Below, piece by piece: positions 9,641 through 63,373 of a stretch of 64,000 nt of DNA. Below the pieces are notes generated by a model. It was given only the letters and a program-made list of their open reading frames with translations. It had not been told where the DNA came from and ran no database searches. Origin of the DNA: an uncultured Fibrobacteraceae bacterium (GTDB lineage Bacteria; Krumholzibacteriota; Krumholzibacteriia; LZORAL124-64-63); contig CAYMCR010000001.1 in assembly GCA_964389015.1 (NCBI GenBank), forward strand, positions 4,561-68,560. The letters run 5' to 3'. Every line of letters begins with the position of its first letter. Position 1 is the stretch's first letter. The position numbers and the translations under genes are program-made.

Positions 9641-11956
9641 CTAGGAGTCCTGTTTCTCGTCCTCGACGACCGCATTCTCCTCGGCCGTCTTTTCGTCGGA
9701 CGTTTCCGCCTCGGTCGACTCCTCGTCCGCCGCTTCGTCTGACGCCGCTTCCGGGGCCGGTTCTTCGACGGCAGCTTCTGCCGCGGCCGGCTCTTCGTCA
9801 GCAGCGGCTTCCGCGGCCGGCTCTTCGTCAGCAGCTTCTGCCGTGACCGGCTCCTCGTCGGACACCTTGTCATCAGTCGTCACTTCGTCAGCCGTGCTTT
9901 CCTCGGCCGGCTCCGCGACGGGTTGATCGGTCGGTGTAGCGGAGACTTCTGCAGTGGTCTCATCACCGTCGCTCGCCGCGTCGGTCGCTACATCCTCAGG
10001 AGTGTCCTCAGGAGCGTCCTTAGGAGTGTCCTCCGGAGCATAGTCGCTTCCGGAATCGGCAGGATAGTCGTCGTTGGCGCGGGCGGTGTCATCGCCTCCC
10101 GCTTCGGCCTCACGTTCGGCCGCCACGACAGCTTCGAGCAGAGGATGCTCGGAGACGAACGTATCCAATTCCTCGCGGGACTGATCCTTGAAGTACTCGG
10201 CCACGGACAACACGATGCGACGGTTCTCCGCGTCCATCTTGATCACGTGCAGGGGCAGGGACTCCTCCTCCTGGAAGTGATACTGGGGCTTCTGGATCTT
10301 GGGGATCGCCAGATGGCCGACCGGCACGAAGCCCTCCAGCGCGTCGGAGATCTCCACGACCATGCCGTGGTCCAGCATGCGGATGACCTGGCCTTCGACC
10401 TGTCGTCCCACGGGATAGTCCTCGGCGAGCGTCGGCCAGGGGTTCTCCTGGAGCTGCTTGATGCCGAGGCTGATGCGACGTTTGTCGGCGTCGATGTCCA
10501 GGATCTGGACCTGCACCGAATCGCCCTTGCGCACGATCTCCTTGGGATGGCGGACGCGCTTGGTCCACGACATGTCCGAGATATGCACCAGACCGTCGAT
10601 ACCCTCCTCCACCTCGACGAAGGCGCCGAAGTCCGTGAGGTTGCGCACACGACCCTCGATGATGGTGCCGACGGGGAAGCGGTCGTCGAGGGACAGCCAG
10701 GGATCCGACTCGGTCTGCTTGAGACCGAGCGAGATCTTCTCGTTGTCCTTGTCTATCTTCAGGACCATGACCTCGACGAGATCGCCGATGGACAGGATCT
10801 TGCTGGGATGCTTGATGTGACGCGTCCAGGACATCTCACTGATGTGGATGAGCCCCTCGATGCCCTCCTCCAGCTCCACGAAGGCGCCGTAGTTGGTGAT
10901 CGAGACGACCTTGCCCTGCACGATGGTCTTCTCCGGGTACTTCGCCTCGACGTTCTCCCAGGGGTAGGACTGAAGCTGCTTCAGGCCCAGGGAGATCCGT
11001 TCGCGGTCGCGGTCGAAGTCCAGGATCTTGACCTCGATCTCGTCGCCGATGTTGACGACCTCGCTCGGATGCTTCACGCGGCCCCAGGAGAGGTCCGTGA
11101 TGTGCAGCAAGCCGTCGATGCCGCCCAGGTCCACGAAGGCGCCGAAGTCGGTGATGTTCTTCACGACGCCGGTGCGCACCTGGTTCTTGTCCAGCTCCGC
11201 CATCAACGTCTTCTTCTTCTCCTCGCGCTCACGCTCGAGCACGATGCGGCGGCTGACCACCACGTTGCGGCGGCGCTTGTTCTTCTTGATGATCTGGCAC
11301 TCGATCTCCTGGCCGATCATCTGGTCCAGGTCGGGGACCTGGCGTAGCGCGACCTGCGAGCCGGGCAGGAAGGTGTCGACATCCCAGAGCTTGACGACCA
11401 GGCCGCCCTTGATGCGGCGATCGACGGTGCCGGTGACCACGTCGCCGGACTCGTGGGCGATCTTGATCCTGTTCCAGACCTTCAGGAAGTCGGCGCGTTC
11501 CTTGGACAGGACCACCAGGCCGTCCTGGTCTTCGAGATGCTCCAGGAAGACGTCGAACTCGTCGCCCTCCGTGATCTCCGTCGCGCCGAACTCGTCGAGG
11601 GAGATGATGCCCTCGCTCTTGAAGCCGATGTTCAGCAGGACCTCGTTCTCGCGGACCTCGACCACCGTTCCCTTGAGGATCTGACCCTCCTGGATCTCGT
11701 TGAGGGTTTCCTCGTACTGGTTCAGCAACGCCAGCATGGCGTCGTCGTCCAGCTCCTCGCCCTCGGTATAGTCGCGGTTGACTATCGCGGACTCGTCGAA
11801 GGTGGTGGTCAGCTTGGGCGCGGCAGGCACAACTGCGGCTAAGCCGCCGTCGCGATTCTCTTTCTGCGCGGCTTCGGCGTGGACTGGTCGGTTCTCGGGG
11901 ACCGAAGGAGTCTGCTCCTGCGGAGCTTCCTCCCCCGTGTTGGGGTTGGGATTCAT
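9641..11956 (-). CDS. rpsA: 30S ribosomal protein S1 with a ~50-aa N-terminal extension and a ~170-aa acidic repetitive C-terminal tail
   Basis: Six S1 domains (ILKGTVVEV; VVTGTVDRRIKGG; VRTGVVKNITDFGAFVDLGG; TIVQGKVVSITNYGAFVEL; GTIIEGRVRNLTDFGAFVEV; GRQVEGQVIRML). 771 aa, versus about 557 for E. coli S1. The tail is rich in D/E/A/P/T. AGGAGGAACC RBS upstream. Confidence 0.95.
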   Translation of the reverse strand: MNPNPNTGEEAPQEQTPSVPENRPVHAEAAQKENRDGGLAAVVPAAPKLTTTFDESAIVNRDYTEGEELDDDAMLALLNQYEETLNEIQEGQILKGTVVEVRENEVLLNIGFKSEGIISLDEFGATEITEGDEFDVFLEHLEDQDGLVVLSKERADFLKVWNRIKIAHESGDVVTGTVDRRIKGGLVVKLWDVDTFLPGSQVALRQVPDLDQMIGQEIECQIIKKNKRRRNVVVSRRIVLEREREEKKKTLMAELDKNQVRTGVVKNITDFGAFVDLGGIDGLLHITDLSWGRVKHPSEVVNIGDEIEVKILDFDRDRERISLGLKQLQSYPWENVEAKYPEKTIVQGKVVSITNYGAFVELEEGIEGLIHISEMSWTRHIKHPSKILSIGDLVEVMVLKIDKDNEKISLGLKQTESDPWLSLDDRFPVGTIIEGRVRNLTDFGAFVEVEEGIDGLVHISDMSWTKRVRHPKEIVRKGDSVQVQILDIDADKRRISLGIKQLQENPWPTLAEDYPVGRQVEGQVIRMLDHGMVVEISDALEGFVPVGHLAIPKIQKPQYHFQEEESLPLHVIKMDAENRRIVLSVAEYFKDQSREELDTFVSEHPLLEAVVAAEREAEAGGDDTARANDDYPADSGSDYAPEDTPKDAPEDTPEDVATDAASDGDETTAEVSATPTDQPVAEPAEESTADEVTTDDKVSDEEPVTAEAADEEPAAEAAADEEPAAAEAAVEEPAPEAASDEAADEESTEAETSDEKTAEENAVVEDEKQDS
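9751..9860. repeat. In-frame tandem repeat, ~30-bp unit x ~3.7, inside the rpsA tail; a second 15-bp x 3 repeat lies at 9986-10030
   Basis: Units ccgcggccggctcttcgtcagcagcggctt / ccgcggccggctcttcgtcagcagcttctg and flanking degenerate copies. They encode (E/A)EPAAEAAAD repeats. The 15-bp unit aggagtgtcctc(n) encodes EDTPKDAPEDTPED. Confidence 0.6.
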
Positions 11957-51965: not shown

Positions 51966-53048
51966 CTAGAAATGGGCGGTGATGCTGACGCGGTGGGTTT
52001 CCTCGTCGATCTCGAGCACGTCCCCTGCATAAGCATAGTCGATGGTCAGCATGGCGAGGCGGAAACCGGCGCCCATGGTGATGTCGTCGAGGGACCAGCC
52101 CGAATCGAAGCCTCCCCGCAGGAAGACCTTCTCGTGCAGGGCGAGTTCCCCGCCGCAGTGCACGTTCGTGCTGAGAGAGCCGGTGTGGTACTGATCGGCG
52201 GCCCGGCGGTTCTCGAAGCGCGTTTCGGCGCTGGTGGCCAGTGTGATGCGCGCGTCCCACGACGGCAGGTGCAGATTGTAGGCGAGAGCGGGCACGATCG
52301 TGGGTGCGATCTTTTCGTTCTTGGCATAGCCGTCCGGTCCCGACCAGGAGAGATAGGTCCTGGTGGCGTCCTGCAGTTTCAAACCGAAATCCAGGTCGCG
52401 CCAGATCCCGCGGCGCAGGGCGCCCAGGTCCAGGCCGATACCCACGCTCGAGTATTCGCCGACGCTCTGGCGGATGAACTTCACGGTCCCGCCCAGTTGC
52501 CAGTCGCCCTTGCGTTCGGCGTAGCTGGCGAAGAGCGCCAGCTCGGAATCGCTGGCGAACTTGATCTGGTCCTGGATGGCGAACAGGCCCTGGAGTTCGT
52601 CGTCGGTCACGGTACCGTCGCCGTTGGCATCCAGCTGATCGAAGAGATGATCGGTGAGCGGAATATCATCGATGCCGAGGCGAATAGCCGAGATGGCGAA
52701 AGCGCCGTCCTGGCCGCCGAGCAGGGACCAGCCCACGGGCTGGGCGTAGGCCACGTAGTCGCGGTCGATCAGATCGCCGAAGCGTTCGGCGTGCATCAGC
52801 AACAGGTTGCGACCGTCGGTACCTACGAGGCCGGCGGGATTCCAGAAGGCGGCGGAAGGGTCGTCGGCCACCGCCGTGAAGGCACCCCCCATGGCGAGTG
52901 CGCGCGCGCCGCCACCGTCCTCCATGAAAGCGCCGGCGTACTTGTCGGCCAAGGCTTCCGTGGGCGAGGAAGCGATGACGACGAAAAGACTGATAGCGCA
53001 GACGGAGAGGGCGCTGATATGCGTCCGGTTGGTGCCGGTGAACAGCAT
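51966..53048 (-). CDS. Outer-membrane beta-barrel protein of the FadL/OmpP1-like family (possible T9SS PorV/LptO-type)
   Basis: Start at MLFTG (ATG 53046-53048), with a GAGGAT RBS and signal peptide ...VVIASSPTEALA. The N-terminal motif GARALAMGGAFTAVADDPSAAFWNPAGL resembles the FadL-family N-terminal hatch motif (E. coli [23 protein letters not shown]). Alternating beta-strand pattern, ending in an aromatic residue (F). Confidence 0.5.
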   Translation of the reverse strand: MLFTGTNRTHISALSVCAISLFVVIASSPTEALADKYAGAFMEDGGGARALAMGGAFTAVADDPSAAFWNPAGLVGTDGRNLLLMHAERFGDLIDRDYVAYAQPVGWSLLGGQDGAFAISAIRLGIDDIPLTDHLFDQLDANGDGTVTDDELQGLFAIQDQIKFASDSELALFASYAERKGDWQLGGTVKFIRQSVGEYSSVGIGLDLGALRRGIWRDLDFGLKLQDATRTYLSWSGPDGYAKNEKIAPTIVPALAYNLHLPSWDARITLATSAETRFENRRAADQYHTGSLSTNVHCGGELALHEKVFLRGGFDSGWSLDDITMGAGFRLAMLTIDYAYAGDVLEIDEETHRVSITAHF

Positions 53049-53073
53049 GTAGGATCCTCGCATTCTCAGGGGT

Positions 53074-53100
53074 GAGAAAAGCCGCTCCGGTACGGACGGC
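53074..53100 (-). terminator. Possible Rho-independent terminator downstream of the sigma54 activator gene
   Basis: Imperfect GC hairpin GCCGUCCGUACCGGAGCGGC, followed on the minus strand by UUUUCUC. 66 nt after the activator stop. Confidence 0.4.
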
Positions 53101-53165
53101 TCATCACACATGATACGCCAATGATGCGGCCGGAGCCAAGCCCCCAGTACAGGGCCAAGTGCATC

Positions 53166-54656
<1,491 letters not shown>

Positions 54657-54673
54657 GTGAGTTCCTCCTGCTA

Positions 54674-54695
54674 TCCTGTCAGGCTTCCTGTCAGG
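54674..54695. promoter_or_regulatory. Tandem palindromic operator-like element (2 x TCCTGTCAGG; CCTG-N-CAGG inverted repeats) between the promoter and the RBS of the FleQ-like gene
   Basis: tcctgtcagg (54674-54683), ct, tcctgtcagg (54686-54695). Each unit is itself palindromic. It lies in a locally AT-rich leader (54700-54760) that contains TATTAT/TATAAT-like hexamers and a TTGGCG -35-like element. Confidence 0.4.
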
Positions 54696-54800
54696 CGCAA
54701 AATATCTCTGAATCTCTGCAATCGATGGATATAATAGCACATATGATGCACGGACGCCAACCTTGCAGTCGTGCGTGCAGGGGGCATGTCAGTTCGGCGA

Positions 54801-55292
54801 TCAGTTCTGCCGGTGCAGGTACTCCACATCCATGCCGTTGATGAAGGACTCGTAGGCCACGTTGGCGCCGGTTGCACGACCGCTCTTGAGCGCGATCTCA
54901 TCCAGCGTTTCCGCAGCTCTGCGCAGGCGCCGCAGCATCGCATCCAGGGCCTCCAACCCTAGCTCCCCCGTCTCCCCACGGCCGGGCTGTGCGGGTACGG
55001 CAGCCTGGACCGCGCGATAGGCGGCCAGACCCGCGGCGGCAGGTGCGGCTTTTATTTCGGATCGTGCCTGGACTTCGCTTTGACGTGGGCGCGTCGCATG
55101 AGCCGGCAGCGCGGGTTTCCAGTTCGTCAGGAGCACCGGCCAGGTCAGGCCGGGCAAGCGCCGGCGCAGGCGCTGGATCTGGATGTAGACCACCACGACG
55201 ATGGCCGTGCCGCCGGCTGCCAGAGCTACCGCGCCCAGCCAGGCCATGGTCTTGTTGCCGCTCTCGAGTAGATTGAGTATGTCCAGACCCAT
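54801..55292 (-). CDS. Hypothetical single-pass membrane protein (163 aa) in the flagellar regulatory segment
   Basis: N-terminal TM helix AWLGAVALAAGGTAIVVVVYIQI. Ala/Pro-rich linker. C-terminal helical region. No family recognised. Located downstream of fliA and upstream of the fleQ-like gene. Confidence 0.4.
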   Translation of the reverse strand: MGLDILNLLESGNKTMAWLGAVALAAGGTAIVVVVYIQIQRLRRRLPGLTWPVLLTNWKPALPAHATRPRQSEVQARSEIKAAPAAAGLAAYRAVQAAVPAQPGRGETGELGLEALDAMLRRLRRAAETLDEIALKSGRATGANVAYESFINGMDVEYLHRQN

Positions 55293-55345: not shown

Positions 55346-55675
55346 TCAGGCTTTCGTGTCCAACATGACGCCCTTGCCACCGTCCTCGGGCTCGTCCGCC
55401 GAGCCCGCCGTTTCCTTCGCGCCGGAGGGTGTGTCTTGCACCTCGTCCTGCGGCTCCTTGTTTGCGGTTCCGCCCCGATCGCGTTTGCGGTCGGGATCGA
55501 TCTTCTGCTTCTGCACCTCTTCGTTGTGTTTGACCCGGTCCACGCGCTTGTCGTTCTTCAACAGCTTGTCGGTCGCCGGATTCACGGGCTGCGTGGCTTG
55601 TCCCTTGACCTGGGTGCGGGCCAGATTGGCGATCTGGCTGATGGTGGTCTTGACGGAGAAGCCATCACTCGTCAT
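55346..55675 (-). CDS. Hypothetical 109-aa highly charged, low-complexity protein (likely disordered) immediately downstream of fliA
   Basis: Strong RBS GGGAGGTG 4 nt before the ATG. Composition K/D/E/Q-rich (..KHNEEVQKQKIDPDRKRDRGGTANKEPQDEVQD..). No TM helix. Confidence 0.45.
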   Translation of the reverse strand: MTSDGFSVKTTISQIANLARTQVKGQATQPVNPATDKLLKNDKRVDRVKHNEEVQKQKIDPDRKRDRGGTANKEPQDEVQDTPSGAKETAGSADEPEDGGKGVMLDTKA

Positions 55676-56710: not shown

Positions 56711-56726
56711 TGCAGTTTCTGTGCCC
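56711..56726 (-). promoter_or_regulatory. Candidate sigma54 (-24/-12) promoter upstream of fliA
   Basis: Minus strand gGGCACaGAAAcTGCA, compared with the consensus TGGCACG-N4-TTGCA. GG-N10-GC spacing is correct. About 40 nt upstream of the fliA ATG. Confidence 0.4.
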
Positions 56727-56743: not shown

Positions 56744-57064
56744 TTACTTCTCTTCACCGATGAGTTGCTGCTTTCGCTCGGTCTTGCGCCGTTTCTTCTC
56801 CTCCACACGCTTCGCCTCGGCTTCGGCGCGCTTGGTCGCCTCGACCTCCAGGTGGGCCCGTTGCTTCGACCAGTCCTCGCGTATCCAGTCGTCCTGGATG
56901 CCTGCTCTGAAGATCATGACCAGGACCGCGCCTAGAGCGTAGAAGACGAAGTAGGCGATGGCTGCACGCTTGAGCGTGGCCAGGATTCCGTAGTCGCGAA
57001 CCAGCGCGAAACACACGGCCGCGAAAGCCGCCGTCAGAGCCGTGGTGTTGACGAGTTTCTTCAT
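56744..57064 (-). CDS. Hypothetical 106-aa protein with two TM helices and a charged coiled C-terminal tail, translationally coupled downstream of flhF
   Basis: GGAGGA RBS. 20 nt after the flhF stop. TM1 TTALTAAFAAVCFALV. TM2 AAIAYFVFYALGAVLVMIF. Tail ...EVEATKRAEAEAKRVEEKKRRKTERKQQ. It occupies the position where flhG/fleN usually sits. Confidence 0.45.
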   Translation of the reverse strand: MKKLVNTTALTAAFAAVCFALVRDYGILATLKRAAIAYFVFYALGAVLVMIFRAGIQDDWIREDWSKQRAHLEVEATKRAEAEAKRVEEKKRRKTERKQQLIGEEK

Positions 57065-58223: not shown

Positions 58224-60324
58224 CTTGCACTCCCTGCGTGGAAACGGTTCCTGCCGATTGGACGCTCGTGTTGGCTGTCACTTCCGTGTAACCCATCACG
58301 GGCAGGCTGGGAAACGTGGGTTCGATCAATCTCTTCACGAAGAGCCGCATGGGCGTCGGCACCAGCAGCACCGGCGGCTTGCCCTGGCTGTATACCTTCT
58401 GCAGGGTGCGCTCCAGTCGCTCCAGGAGCGTCTGGGCCAGCAGGGGATCCAGCACGACCGCGCCGACCCGGTCCGATTCCTTCGCGGCCTGGCCGAGGTT
58501 GTATTCCGTCTCCGGATGCAGCGTGACCGCGTAGACGTTGCCGTCGGGCTCCACGTAGAGACTGCTGATGTTGCGGCGCAGTGATTCGCGCACCTTCTCC
58601 AGCAGCAGGTCTACACCCGCTTTGGCGTTCATGTAGTTGGCGAGCGTTTCGAGGATGGTGACGATGTCCTTGATGGGGATCCGCTCGTGCAGCAACCCCC
58701 GCAGGACGTTGTGCAGCGTGTTCACCGGCACCTTGTCGGGAATGAGATCCTCGATCAGGGCCGGGGCGAACTCGCGCACCGTCTCGCACATGTCCTTCAC
58801 GTCCTGCCTGGACAGCAGCTCGTCGGCGTGGTTGCGAATGGTCTCGGACAGGTGGGTGGCGAGCACGGCCGTCGGCTCGACGACGGTGTAGCCCTCCATC
58901 TCCGCGGCCGCCTTGCGCCCCGGGTCGATCCAGATCGCGGGCAGTTTGAAGGCCGGTTCCACCGTCTCGATACCCTCGAGCTTTTCACCGCTCGCGCCGC
59001 CGGTGCTCATGGCGAGCAGCCGGTCGGGCCGCAACTCGGCGCGGGATATCTCGACGCCCTTGAGCTTCAGCACGTAATCGTTCGCGCCCAGCTGGAGATT
59101 GTCCCTGACACGCACCGGCTGGATGACCATGCCCAGCTCGGTGCTGATCTGCTTGCGGATGTTGGTGATGCGGACCAGCAGATCGCCGCCGCGGGATTCG
59201 TCGACCAGGGGCAGTAGGCCGTAGCCGAGTTCCAACTCCAGGGCGTCGGTCACGTACAGCTCGCGGATGGTGTCCCGCTCCTGGGCTCCGGCTTCCTGCT
59301 CGGCTGCCTGTCCGGAGAGCTCCTCCGCCTGGCTATTTTCAATGCTTTGGACGCGTCCCGAGACGATGCGACCGGCCATCGCGAACGCCGCGGCCAGCCC
59401 CACGAACGGCAGCGTCGGCAGCCCGGGTATCAACCCGAACACGGCCAGCGCGCCCGAGGCCAGATAGATCGCCTTGGGTTGCCTGAAGATCTGCATCGTG
59501 AGCGCTTGACCCAGGTTCATGCTGCCGCTGGAACGCGTCACCACCATGCCCGCCGCCGTGGAAATGAGCAGGGCCGGGATCTGGGTAACGAGGCCGTCAC
59601 CCACGGTCAGAAGCATGAACTGGCGCATGGATTCGCCGGCGCTCATACCCATCTGCAGCATGCCGACGACGAAACCGCCGACGATGTTGATCAGGGTGAT
59701 GATGATGCCGGCGATGGCGTCGCCGCGTACGAACTTGCTGGCACCGTCCATAGCACCGAAGAATTCGGCCTCGGACGACACCTTGGCGCGTCTCTCCCGC
59801 GCCTGCGCTTCGTTGATGAGTCCGGCGTTCAGGTCGGCGTCGATGGCCATCTGCTTGCCGGGCATGGCATCGAGGGTGAATCGGGCGGCCACCTCGGCGA
59901 TACGGCCCGAGCCCTTGGTGATCACCACGAACTGGACGATCACCAGGATGGCAAAGACTATGACACCGATGACATAATTCCCGCCAATCACGAAATCGCC
60001 GAAACTGGCGATGACCTTGCCGGCGGCCGCCTTGCTGAGGATCAGACGGGTCGACGCCACGTTCAGCGCCAGCCGGTAGAGGGTGACCATGAGCAGCAGG
60101 GACGGGAAGCTCGAGAAGTGCAACGGCTCCTTCAAATACAGCGCAACCAGCAGGATGACGACGGCGAAGGCGATGTTGAATGTGATCAAAAGGTCCAGGG
60201 CGATGGGGTTTACGGGCATGATCATCAAACCGATGACCGCCACGACGGCCAAGGCGCTCAACACGTTGCTGTTGGCCAGGATCAAGTCCCTGTCGATCTC
60301 CTTTGTGCCGTCCAAGCCGTTCAC
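58201..60324 (-). CDS. flhA: Flagellar export apparatus protein FlhA
   Basis: 707 aa. N-terminal TM region with the FHIPEP motif (VVITKGSGRIAEVAARFTLDAMPGKQMAIDADL). Large cytoplasmic C-domain. Confidence 0.95.
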   Translation of the reverse strand: MNGLDGTKEIDRDLILANSNVLSALAVVAVIGLMIMPVNPIALDLLITFNIAFAVVILLVALYLKEPLHFSSFPSLLLMVTLYRLALNVASTRLILSKAAAGKVIASFGDFVIGGNYVIGVIVFAILVIVQFVVITKGSGRIAEVAARFTLDAMPGKQMAIDADLNAGLINEAQARERRAKVSSEAEFFGAMDGASKFVRGDAIAGIIITLINIVGGFVVGMLQMGMSAGESMRQFMLLTVGDGLVTQIPALLISTAAGMVVTRSSGSMNLGQALTMQIFRQPKAIYLASGALAVFGLIPGLPTLPFVGLAAAFAMAGRIVSGRVQSIENSQAEELSGQAAEQEAGAQERDTIRELYVTDALELELGYGLLPLVDESRGGDLLVRITNIRKQISTELGMVIQPVRVRDNLQLGANDYVLKLKGVEISRAELRPDRLLAMSTGGASGEKLEGIETVEPAFKLPAIWIDPGRKAAAEMEGYTVVEPTAVLATHLSETIRNHADELLSRQDVKDMCETVREFAPALIEDLIPDKVPVNTLHNVLRGLLHERIPIKDIVTILETLANYMNAKAGVDLLLEKVRESLRRNISSLYVEPDGNVYAVTLHPETEYNLGQAAKESDRVGAVVLDPLLAQTLLERLERTLQKVYSQGKPPVLLVPTPMRLFVKRLIEPTFPSLPVMGYTEVTANTSVQSAGTVSTQGVQDAQQATA

Positions 60325-63358: not shown

Positions 63359-63373
63359 GCAATGGGCGTGCCA
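63359..63373 (-). promoter_or_regulatory. Sigma54 (RpoN) -24/-12 promoter upstream of fliP, in the 166-nt fliO-fliP gap
   Basis: Minus strand TGGCACGcccaTTGCg. This matches TGGCACG-N4-TTGC exactly, with GG-N10-GC spacing. Located 43-57 nt upstream of the fliP start. Confidence 0.55.

Follow-up and report, generated by a model that had tools for sequence, protein, structure and literature searches.

A conserved array of TGNCA sites, probably a DNA operator, flanks the sigma70-type promoter of a flagellar sigma-54 activator gene in Krumholzibacteriia

In the window (the whole 64,000-nucleotide stretch of DNA that was analysed), a long same-strand run of flagellar genes (fliI-fliJ-x-fliK-flgD-flgE-flbD-motAB-fliLMN-(fliO)-fliPQR-flhB-flhA-flhF-x-fliA-x-x) ends with the gene for a sigma-54 activator, its last flagellar gene, and the short leader of this gene carries a palindromic sequence twice in tandem, raising the question of whether the repeats are a regulatory site and, if so, whether they act as DNA or as RNA and what may bind them. 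The leader, 54657-54800, coincides exactly with the gap that separates a 163-aa ORF from the activator gene, both on the minus strand (Table 1). The activator gene is the only sigma-54 activator gene in the flagellar cluster and is followed by a same-strand PorV-like gene and then by an SLT/LysM gene in the opposite orientation. Homologues of its product are annotated as Krumholzibacteriota or Krumholzibacteriia, the synteny of the locus is kept across the class, and the identical protein is present on ENA metagenome scaffolds. Two sigma-54 promoter sequences were seen within the run, a perfect one before fliP, lying mid-way along it in a 166-nt gap, and a weaker, sigma-54-like one before fliA in a 73-nt gap.

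Several features of the neighbourhood were observed alongside. The PorV/PorQ-family (type IX secretion) outer-membrane protein gene directly 3' of the activator gene has a weak EF-hand match and is kept at this place in all relatives in which the downstream gene was seen. Three small ORFs of 106, 109 and 163 aa flank fliA and are syntenic across the class; domain searches gave no match for any of them even at E<=1 and no recognisable DNA-binding domain, the 163-aa ORF has a transmembrane segment, and the 106-aa ORF occupies the usual place of flhG/fleN, no FleN/FlhG-type gene having been found between flhF and fliA with Pfam or NCBIfam. Distal Krumholzibacteriia carry two tandem HDOD-domain genes between the small ORFs and the activator gene (L062 8152-9952, L063 8067-9884 and L064 8083-9903), which are not present in the window clade.

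On the plus strand the repeat was found to be an 11-mer, TCCTGTCAGGC, present in two perfect copies with a period of 12 bp. The first-pass annotation had described two tandem 10-bp palindromes, of which the two perfect copies and the 12-bp spacing hold; the palindrome itself is a 9-mer, CCTG-N-CAGG (4+1+4, with an unpaired centre), and the 10-mer TCCTGTCAGG has CCTGACAGGA as its reverse complement and hence is not self-complementary. Site D2 is spaced 12 bp from site D1 and lies 5 nt from the Shine-Dalgarno sequence, so that the repeats do stand between the putative -10 and the ribosome-binding site, just 5' of AGGAGG, as had been described. Compared with chance in the 64-kb window, single CCTGNCAGG sites are as frequent as expected (3 against 1.8 expected, with 28 of 100 shuffles reaching 3), while the pair is unique: CTGNCAG-N5-CTGNCAG occurs once with 0 mismatches, and every other match needs 2. 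The window has 5 perfect repeats of 10 bp or more whose period is 15 or less, where shuffles have 0.8, and the longest is the D1/D2 repeat; four further perfect repeats of at least 10 bp in the window have a 12-bp period. Pairs in front of other flagellar genes, which the first-pass annotation had proposed as a check, did not turn up, with no CCTGNCAGG or CTGNCAG pair before them in the 64-kb window and 10 kb more of the same scaffold. A second near-tandem repeat of period 12, TCAGTTCGGC / TCAGTTCTGC, runs across the stop codon that ends the 163-aa ORF and partly coincides with the upstream site, U. Inside flhA, three TGNCA units within 26 nt form the densest TGNCA cluster of the 20.8-kb locus, which is probably due to chance, because it was not found in flhA of L062-L064.

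The AT-rich island reported for this leader was confirmed (GC 0.40-0.43 in 54680-54759 against 0.66 for the window), and so were its sigma70-like hexamers, TTGGCG-18 nt-TG-c-TATTAT on the minus strand, the promoter scan giving 1 site against 0.2 in shuffles. The extended -10 forms the core of the island, and with its hexamers, a 16-18 nt spacer and conservation among orthologues the promoter is of sigma70 type, the start site being a predicted one. Relative to that start, the pair is at about +30 to +50 and site U at about -67, which places U ~27 nt 5' of the -35. The pair is thus outside the RNA polymerase footprint and therefore not at an initiation-blocking position, contrary to the earlier statement that it sits exactly where a repressor would block initiation; that position holds an equivalent palindrome in most related species, and not in the window species. 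The block TCGATTGCAG around the predicted start occupies the position of the second half-site, TGNCAG, of 35 distal loci, and L007 keeps TATCA-TGTCAG there, which suggests that TCGATTGCAG may be what is left, after decay, of the TGNCA-N3-TGNCAG palindrome that other species have next to the promoter. Other promoter readings of the gap were tried and rejected. A second promoter using U or D1/D2 as its -35 has no -10-like hexamer at the right distance, and conservation is lacking for the TATTTT that immediately precedes D1 in the window. The TGGCA/TGNCA sequences do not read as sigma-54 promoters, their GG-to-GC spacings being 7-8 or 18 nt and not 10, and the canonical TGGCACGCCCATTGC elsewhere in the window implies that sigma-54 specificity is normal in the source organism. 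No arrangement like TAAA-N15-GCCGATAA of a sigma-28 promoter was seen by eye in the alignments.

Table 1. Features of the activator leader and its surroundings, in minus-strand order from 5' to 3'
Feature	Sequence	Position	Strand	Remarks
Sigma-54 promoter before fliP	TGGCACGCCCATTGC	63359-63373	minus	perfect
TGNCA cluster inside flhA	TGTCATCGGTGTCATAGTCTTTGCCA	59949-59974		L065 13343-13368
106-aa ORF		56744-57064	minus	
Sigma-54-like site before fliA	GGGCACAGAAACTGC	56712-56726	minus	weaker
109-aa ORF		55346-55675	minus	
163-aa ORF		54801-55292	minus	stop codon 54803-54801
Second near-tandem repeat	TCAGTTCGGC / TCAGTTCTGC	54789-54810	plus	period 12
Upstream site U	CTGACAT	54786-54792	minus	core TGACA 54791-54787; CTG(A/C)CA invariant in 7/7 window-clade loci
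-35-like hexamer	TTGGCG	54755-54760	minus	promoter scan; TGGC invariant in 7/7 close relatives; 18-nt spacer follows
Extended -10	TG-c-TATTAT	54731-54739	minus	hexamer 54736-54731; promoter scan; TGCTA block invariant in close relatives
Block around predicted start (~54724)	TCGATTGCAG	54716-54725	minus	conserved in window clade
Site D1	CCTGACAGG	54687-54695	minus	core TGACA; ~+30 to +38; TG-N-CA invariant in 7/7 relatives, flanks vary; AAG follows
Site D2	CCTGACAGG	54675-54683	minus	core TGACA; ~+42 to +50; CTG-N-CA invariant in 7/7 relatives; ATAGC follows
11-mer, two copies	TCCTGTCAGGC	54674-54684 and 54686-54696	plus	
Shine-Dalgarno	AGGAGG	54664-54669	minus	7 nt from start codon; GCAGGAGG invariant in relatives
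Sigma-54 activator (bEBP) gene, 496 aa		53166-54656	minus	TTG start at 54656; Pfam domains
Activator residues 1-125		54282-54656	minus	
PorV/PorQ-family gene		51966-53111	minus	

The leader was compared with those of 57 orthologous loci (58 upstream regions with that of the window), close relatives having been found by exact-protein look-ups and 51 GTDB species representatives by an alignment scan with the family-specific N-domain; protein identity was 81-87% in the window clade and fell to ~40% in the N-domain across the class. In the window clade the start codon at the aligned position is TTG or GTG in all relatives, and the intergenic DNA has diverged around discrete blocks that are invariant (alignments A1 and A3), namely the upstream CTG(A/C)CA, the -35 TGGC, the extended -10 TGCTA, the TG-N-CA of both copies and GCAGGAGG. 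The conserved unit is a TGNCA core and not the 9- or 10-mer palindrome: the copies of relatives read CCTGACAGC, ACTGACAGG, CCTGTCAGC, ATGACAA, CTGTCAT and CTGCCAT, and only in the window genome do the two copies agree at 11 of 12 positions, those of relatives differing from each other. Within this clade it is the distance from the pair to the Shine-Dalgarno sequence that is constant, not that to the promoter, and the motif-to-Shine-Dalgarno spacing TGACAG-N5/6-CAGGAGG is kept in L013-L017, L024, L066 and L068 as well.

Across the class, at least two TGNCA within 150 nt were found in 51 of the 58 upstream regions (3.0% of control windows) and at least three in 43 of them (0.39% of control windows), counts which overstate the number of independent observations since the orthologues are phylogenetically related, an overcounting that is mitigated because intergenic sequence outside the blocks is poorly conserved. 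TGNCA had a density of 20.7 per kb in 54 upstream regions of 130 nt, where the 164 kb of flanking DNA gave 1.78 per kb on each strand, an enrichment of ~10-fold upstream of the orthologues, and TGNCA-N3-TGNCA occurred 35 times in these 54 regions and 0 times in the flanks; in two distal loci of 21.5 kb the palindrome lies solely upstream of the activator gene. As TGNCA-N3-TGNCAG it is present in 35 of 50 species representatives, its first T being the last T of the -10 TATnnT, with TTGnCn 17 nt upstream of that -10 in the distal-clade consensus, so placed that it spans about -7 to +7 and overlaps the -10 and +1. A further TGNCA, often CCTGACAGG, stands 51-57 nt upstream of the palindrome in 14 of these 35 loci, at a position equivalent to U. 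The spacing of the units varies by lineage, being N3 in 35 loci, N4 in 5 (L013-L017, CTGTCAGGTCTGACAG), N6 in 1 (L066), N7 in 8 (the window clade and L024) and N9 in 1 (L023), with three abutting pentamers in L068; repeat periods in relatives run from 8 to 14 bp, and the central base is variable. Seven loci have no motif; some of these have a GC-rich hairpin before the Shine-Dalgarno sequence, and one, L062, has its -10, TGTATGAT, ~10 nt from the ATG (9975-10020), which makes its mRNA nearly leaderless. In L033 and L035-L038 a CCTGNCAGG-like upstream unit (~55 nt upstream of the palindrome, ~1385-1440) was seen to lie in the loop of a GC-rich stem followed by a T-run, which is the intrinsic terminator of the preceding gene, for example GGCGGCGGAC-CTGACAGG-GGTCTGCCGCC-GTTTT.

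As is expected of an operator, the motif is conserved at orthologous promoters and rare elsewhere, and the proposal of the first-pass annotation that the repeats are a regulatory site at the activator promoter is strengthened by their belonging to a conserved cis-element enriched upstream of orthologues. We consider it fairly probable that D1 and D2, together with U, make up a multi-site DNA operator built on the TGNCA core and flanking a sigma70-type promoter; judged from sequence conservation, the TGNCA sites are most likely docking sites for a candidate regulatory protein. With this promoter the activator gene, at the end of a long flagellar export operon that depends on sigma-54, would have a transcription start of its own, and a sequence-specific protein, probably a dimer or higher oligomer, would bind the TGNCA units and turn this promoter down. 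Since the first T of the N3 palindrome is the last T of the -10, a protein bound there would occlude RNA polymerase in the distal species, where the upstream unit, ~five helical turns away, would be an auxiliary site. In the window clade the proximal site would have decayed, leaving the pair 12 bp apart at +30 to +50, and repression would have to rely on a roadblock, on cooperation or looping between the pair and site U ~100 bp upstream, or on both. The variable spacing of the units between lineages speaks against an operator, as a rigid dimer would not tolerate it, and so do the seven loci in which the motif is missing.

A possible binder is encoded next to the sites. Pfam assigned to the 496-aa activator a Sigma54_activat domain (PF00158, 6.3e-67), AAA_lid_14 (PF25601) and a Fis-type HTH (HTH_8, PF02954), and with GAFTGA present in its sigma-54-interacting AAA+ domain and the Fis-type HTH at its C-terminus the protein is a bEBP of the NtrC family. 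Its AAA+ domain is close to those of ZraR and FleQ among solved structures, and no NCBIfam equivalog reached its cut-off. Residues 1-125 gave no Pfam (E<=1e-3), NCBIfam or PDB sequence match; the AlphaFold model of this N-domain (pLDDT 89) is a (beta-alpha)5 receiver fold that matches REC domains with TM 0.6-0.73 at 12-18% identity. The acidic pair after beta1 is replaced by G-R-R, whereas D52, the Asp that ends beta3, does not vary, so the N-domain is a pseudo-receiver, which is specific to the family and carries the invariant motif SPSEALA.

The protein had earlier been called FleQ-like and its sites discussed in terms of c-di-GMP, and neither description fitted well. The FleQ N-domain PF06490 was not found (Pfam, E<=1e-3), and the N-domain profile finds no solved FleQ REC. 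Among the five c-di-GMP contact residues of FleQ, R144, R185, N186, E330 and R334 (PMC8335546), only R185 is kept in an alignment to FleQ chain 8p53_C, the others reading S, A, T and Q in the order R144, N186, E330 and R334. The FleQ box was also considered and set aside: its consensus GTCaNTAAAtTGAC (PMC6120874) is not in the leader, where the conserved motif is TGNCA-based. As far as its sequence can tell, the activator is FleQ-like only loosely and is not a FleQ-family member.

The encoded activator, binding through its Fis-type HTH and so regulating its own gene negatively, is our leading candidate for the protein at the TGNCA sites, put forward tentatively and by analogy with LuxO and NtrC, from which autorepression draws its support as a leading guess. 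It is plausible in that the N3 site shares the geometry of the LuxO site and the HTH is essentially invariant across the family. The HTH is the same in loci with and without the motif, which counts against autoregulation; a test for covariation of the HTH with the presence or spacing of the motif was dropped as uninformative, because the HTH is invariant in all groups. No TGNCA other than a promoter's own TGGCA was found within several hundred bp of the fliP and fliA sigma-54(-like) promoters (L065 9500-10400 and 16200-17000, the only two promoters in 20.8 kb of flagellar region), and autoregulation is therefore a guess; sites serving as a shared bEBP enhancer (UAS) ~80-200 bp from sigma-54 promoters were likewise not found, in what is a weak test with two promoters in view.

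The sites may instead bind a regulator that is not encoded by a neighbouring gene, for example one of CRP/FNR-like or response-regulator type, an alternative that we regard as rather unlikely and which is the best placed of the rivals. Such a global or motility/biofilm-switch factor would couple synthesis of the flagellar activator to an external signal, and may activate from the upstream site and repress from the proximal or downstream sites. The conservation of the DNA sites speaks for this protein as much as for the activator, the sigma-54 promoters expected to depend on the activator have no TGNCA nearby, and the upstream unit, ~55-67 bp upstream of the start, is at a typical auxiliary or activating position. 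Flagellar master regulator genes elsewhere are, moreover, commonly controlled by other factors, such as Vfr at fleQ in Pseudomonas aeruginosa. Set against this, no candidate was identified, the 106-, 109- and 163-aa neighbour ORFs being without a DNA-binding domain; the motif is absent from the 164 kb of flanks and so is not a frequent global motif there; and the geometry is neither that of a CRP site (5-N6-5) nor that of a Pho box. A Pho box consists of two CTGTCAT direct repeats with an 11-bp period that replace the -35, and was rejected for the sites here, which have a period of 12 bp at +30 to +50 in the window and periods of 8 to 14 bp with a variable centre in relatives.

Counting both kinds of binder, we consider a protein-bound DNA operator fairly probable. 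It is quite improbable, in our estimate, that in the window clade the pair is an RNA element of the 5'-UTR. Its CCUGACAGG copies would then pair to a hairpin 5 nt upstream of the Shine-Dalgarno sequence (CCUG.CAGG / CCUG.CAGG, 8 bp interrupted by an A-A mismatch, around an AAG loop), which would modulate the initiation of translation or the stability of the mRNA, or be bound by an RNA-binding protein. Both the minimum-energy and the centroid structure of the window leader do contain this D1-D2 hairpin, which is also predicted for L008 and L014; the distance from motif to Shine-Dalgarno sequence is constant in the window clade, L013-L017, L024, L066 and L068 while that to the -10 differs; and in L018, L020 and L021 (~1455-1490), which have no TGNCA sites, this place directly 5' of the Shine-Dalgarno sequence is taken by a GC-rich hairpin (for example GGCCCCG...CGGGGCC). 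The hairpin is not predicted in L004, L007 or L024, however, and leader folds are no better than shuffles (z-scores -1.0 to +1.6). Pairing is possible between any two TGNCA units, each being a palindrome in its own right, and a D1-D2 hairpin is thus trivially expected. Rfam gave no match at E<=10 on either strand of 54500-54950. The unit conserved upstream of the -35, in 7/7 loci of the window clade and 14/35 distal loci, cannot be in the transcript from the activator promoter, and the palindrome of 35 species straddles the predicted start site and so would not be fully transcribed.

The central bases of the N3 half-sites point the same way. They are Watson-Crick complementary in 15/35 cases against 11.5 expected (9/25 distinct sites), which is not covariation, and they show a two-fold symmetric preference, G never occurring in the left half and C never in the right, which is what symmetric protein-DNA contact predicts. 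With sites upstream of the promoter, no covariation and a two-fold symmetric base preference, the TGNCA sites are read here as probably a protein-bound DNA operator array rather than an RNA hairpin. A CsrA/RsmA site has a conserved GGA in hairpin loops, one of them overlapping the Shine-Dalgarno sequence; control by CsrA/RsmA or CsrA/FliW was rejected, as the GGA that follows both window copies is not conserved in relatives or the distal clade (after copy 1, relatives have CAGC, CATT or CAGC). The constant distance from motif to Shine-Dalgarno sequence may leave some room for an added role at the RNA level. One joint reading would use this room, though we give it little chance: a lineage-specific feedback in which a pseudo-receiver activator binds flexibly spaced TGNCA units and shuts its own sigma70 promoter, the operator of the window clade having shifted from the start site to the ribosome-binding site and so having two roles, one in the DNA as a roadblock or looping site and one in the 5'-UTR as a hairpin beside the Shine-Dalgarno sequence. 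That the perfect repeat is just a recent 12-bp tandem duplication or a chance similarity without function fits the near-identity of the copies in the window genome only, the four other perfect repeats of 12-bp period and the chance frequency of single CCTGNCAGG sites, and is very hard to credit given that both TGNCA cores are invariant at the same positions in 7/7 relatives whose leaders have diverged, that these are not near-identical strains (81-87% protein identity in the clade) and that related arrangements recur across the class.

A search of the literature on flagella of Krumholzibacteria found nothing relevant, and we know of no experimental work on gene regulation in Krumholzibacteriota, nor of any cultured representative. 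Neither the TGNCA motif nor any regulation is known to have been described before for this uncultured phylum; the arrangement is in kind an ordinary promoter-operator. A sharply defined, family-wide motif offers a testable entry into the decision to build a flagellum in Krumholzibacteriota, and can be used as a search pattern for the remaining regulon in their genomes.

Among known systems, the proposed operator with the activator as its binder resembles LuxO of Vibrio, likewise a sigma-54 activator whose N-domain is of receiver type and which carries a Fis-type HTH. The LuxO site, TTGCAW3TGCAA, is a palindrome of 13 bp in which an A/T-rich spacer separates the two halves (PMC11443567); TGNCA-N3-TGNCA, found in 35 related species, shares this 5-N3-5 geometry. 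LuxO, a bEBP, represses the sigma70-type transcription of its own gene (PMC3130561). The LuxO half-site is TTGCA, whereas it is TGNCA here; the units of the window are 12 bp apart (N7) and in the leader, not at the promoter; and matching sites were not found upstream of the two sigma-54 promoters in view.

A second parallel is NtrC of enteric bacteria, a bEBP that uses several enhancer-type sites to repress sigma70 promoters, acting on glnAp1/glnLp, the promoter of its own gene included, through sites that overlap them. Its site, a 17-bp TGCACC-N5-GGTGCA dyad, is unlike the TGNCA units, and NtrC is a phosphorylatable response regulator, whereas the activator here has a pseudo-receiver without the acidic pair. 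FleQ of Pseudomonas is also a bEBP of a flagellar cluster with a non-phosphorylatable receiver-like N-domain, and binds sites downstream of start sites and in pairs around the promoter (pel, flhA, fliE, fliL); it differs from the window protein in PF06490 and the FleQ box, neither of which is found here, and in the FleN/FlhG-type gene, for which the flhF-fliA interval has no counterpart. In layout, the sites compare with multi-operator repression using an auxiliary upstream site, as by GalR at OE/OI or LacI at O1/O3. The units here are much shorter (5-9 bp), their spacing varies by lineage and looping is a proposed step; the likeness lies in one site being upstream of the promoter with the others at or downstream of the start, and in the 51-57 bp separation of the distal clade, which at ~five helical turns is as in multi-operator layouts.
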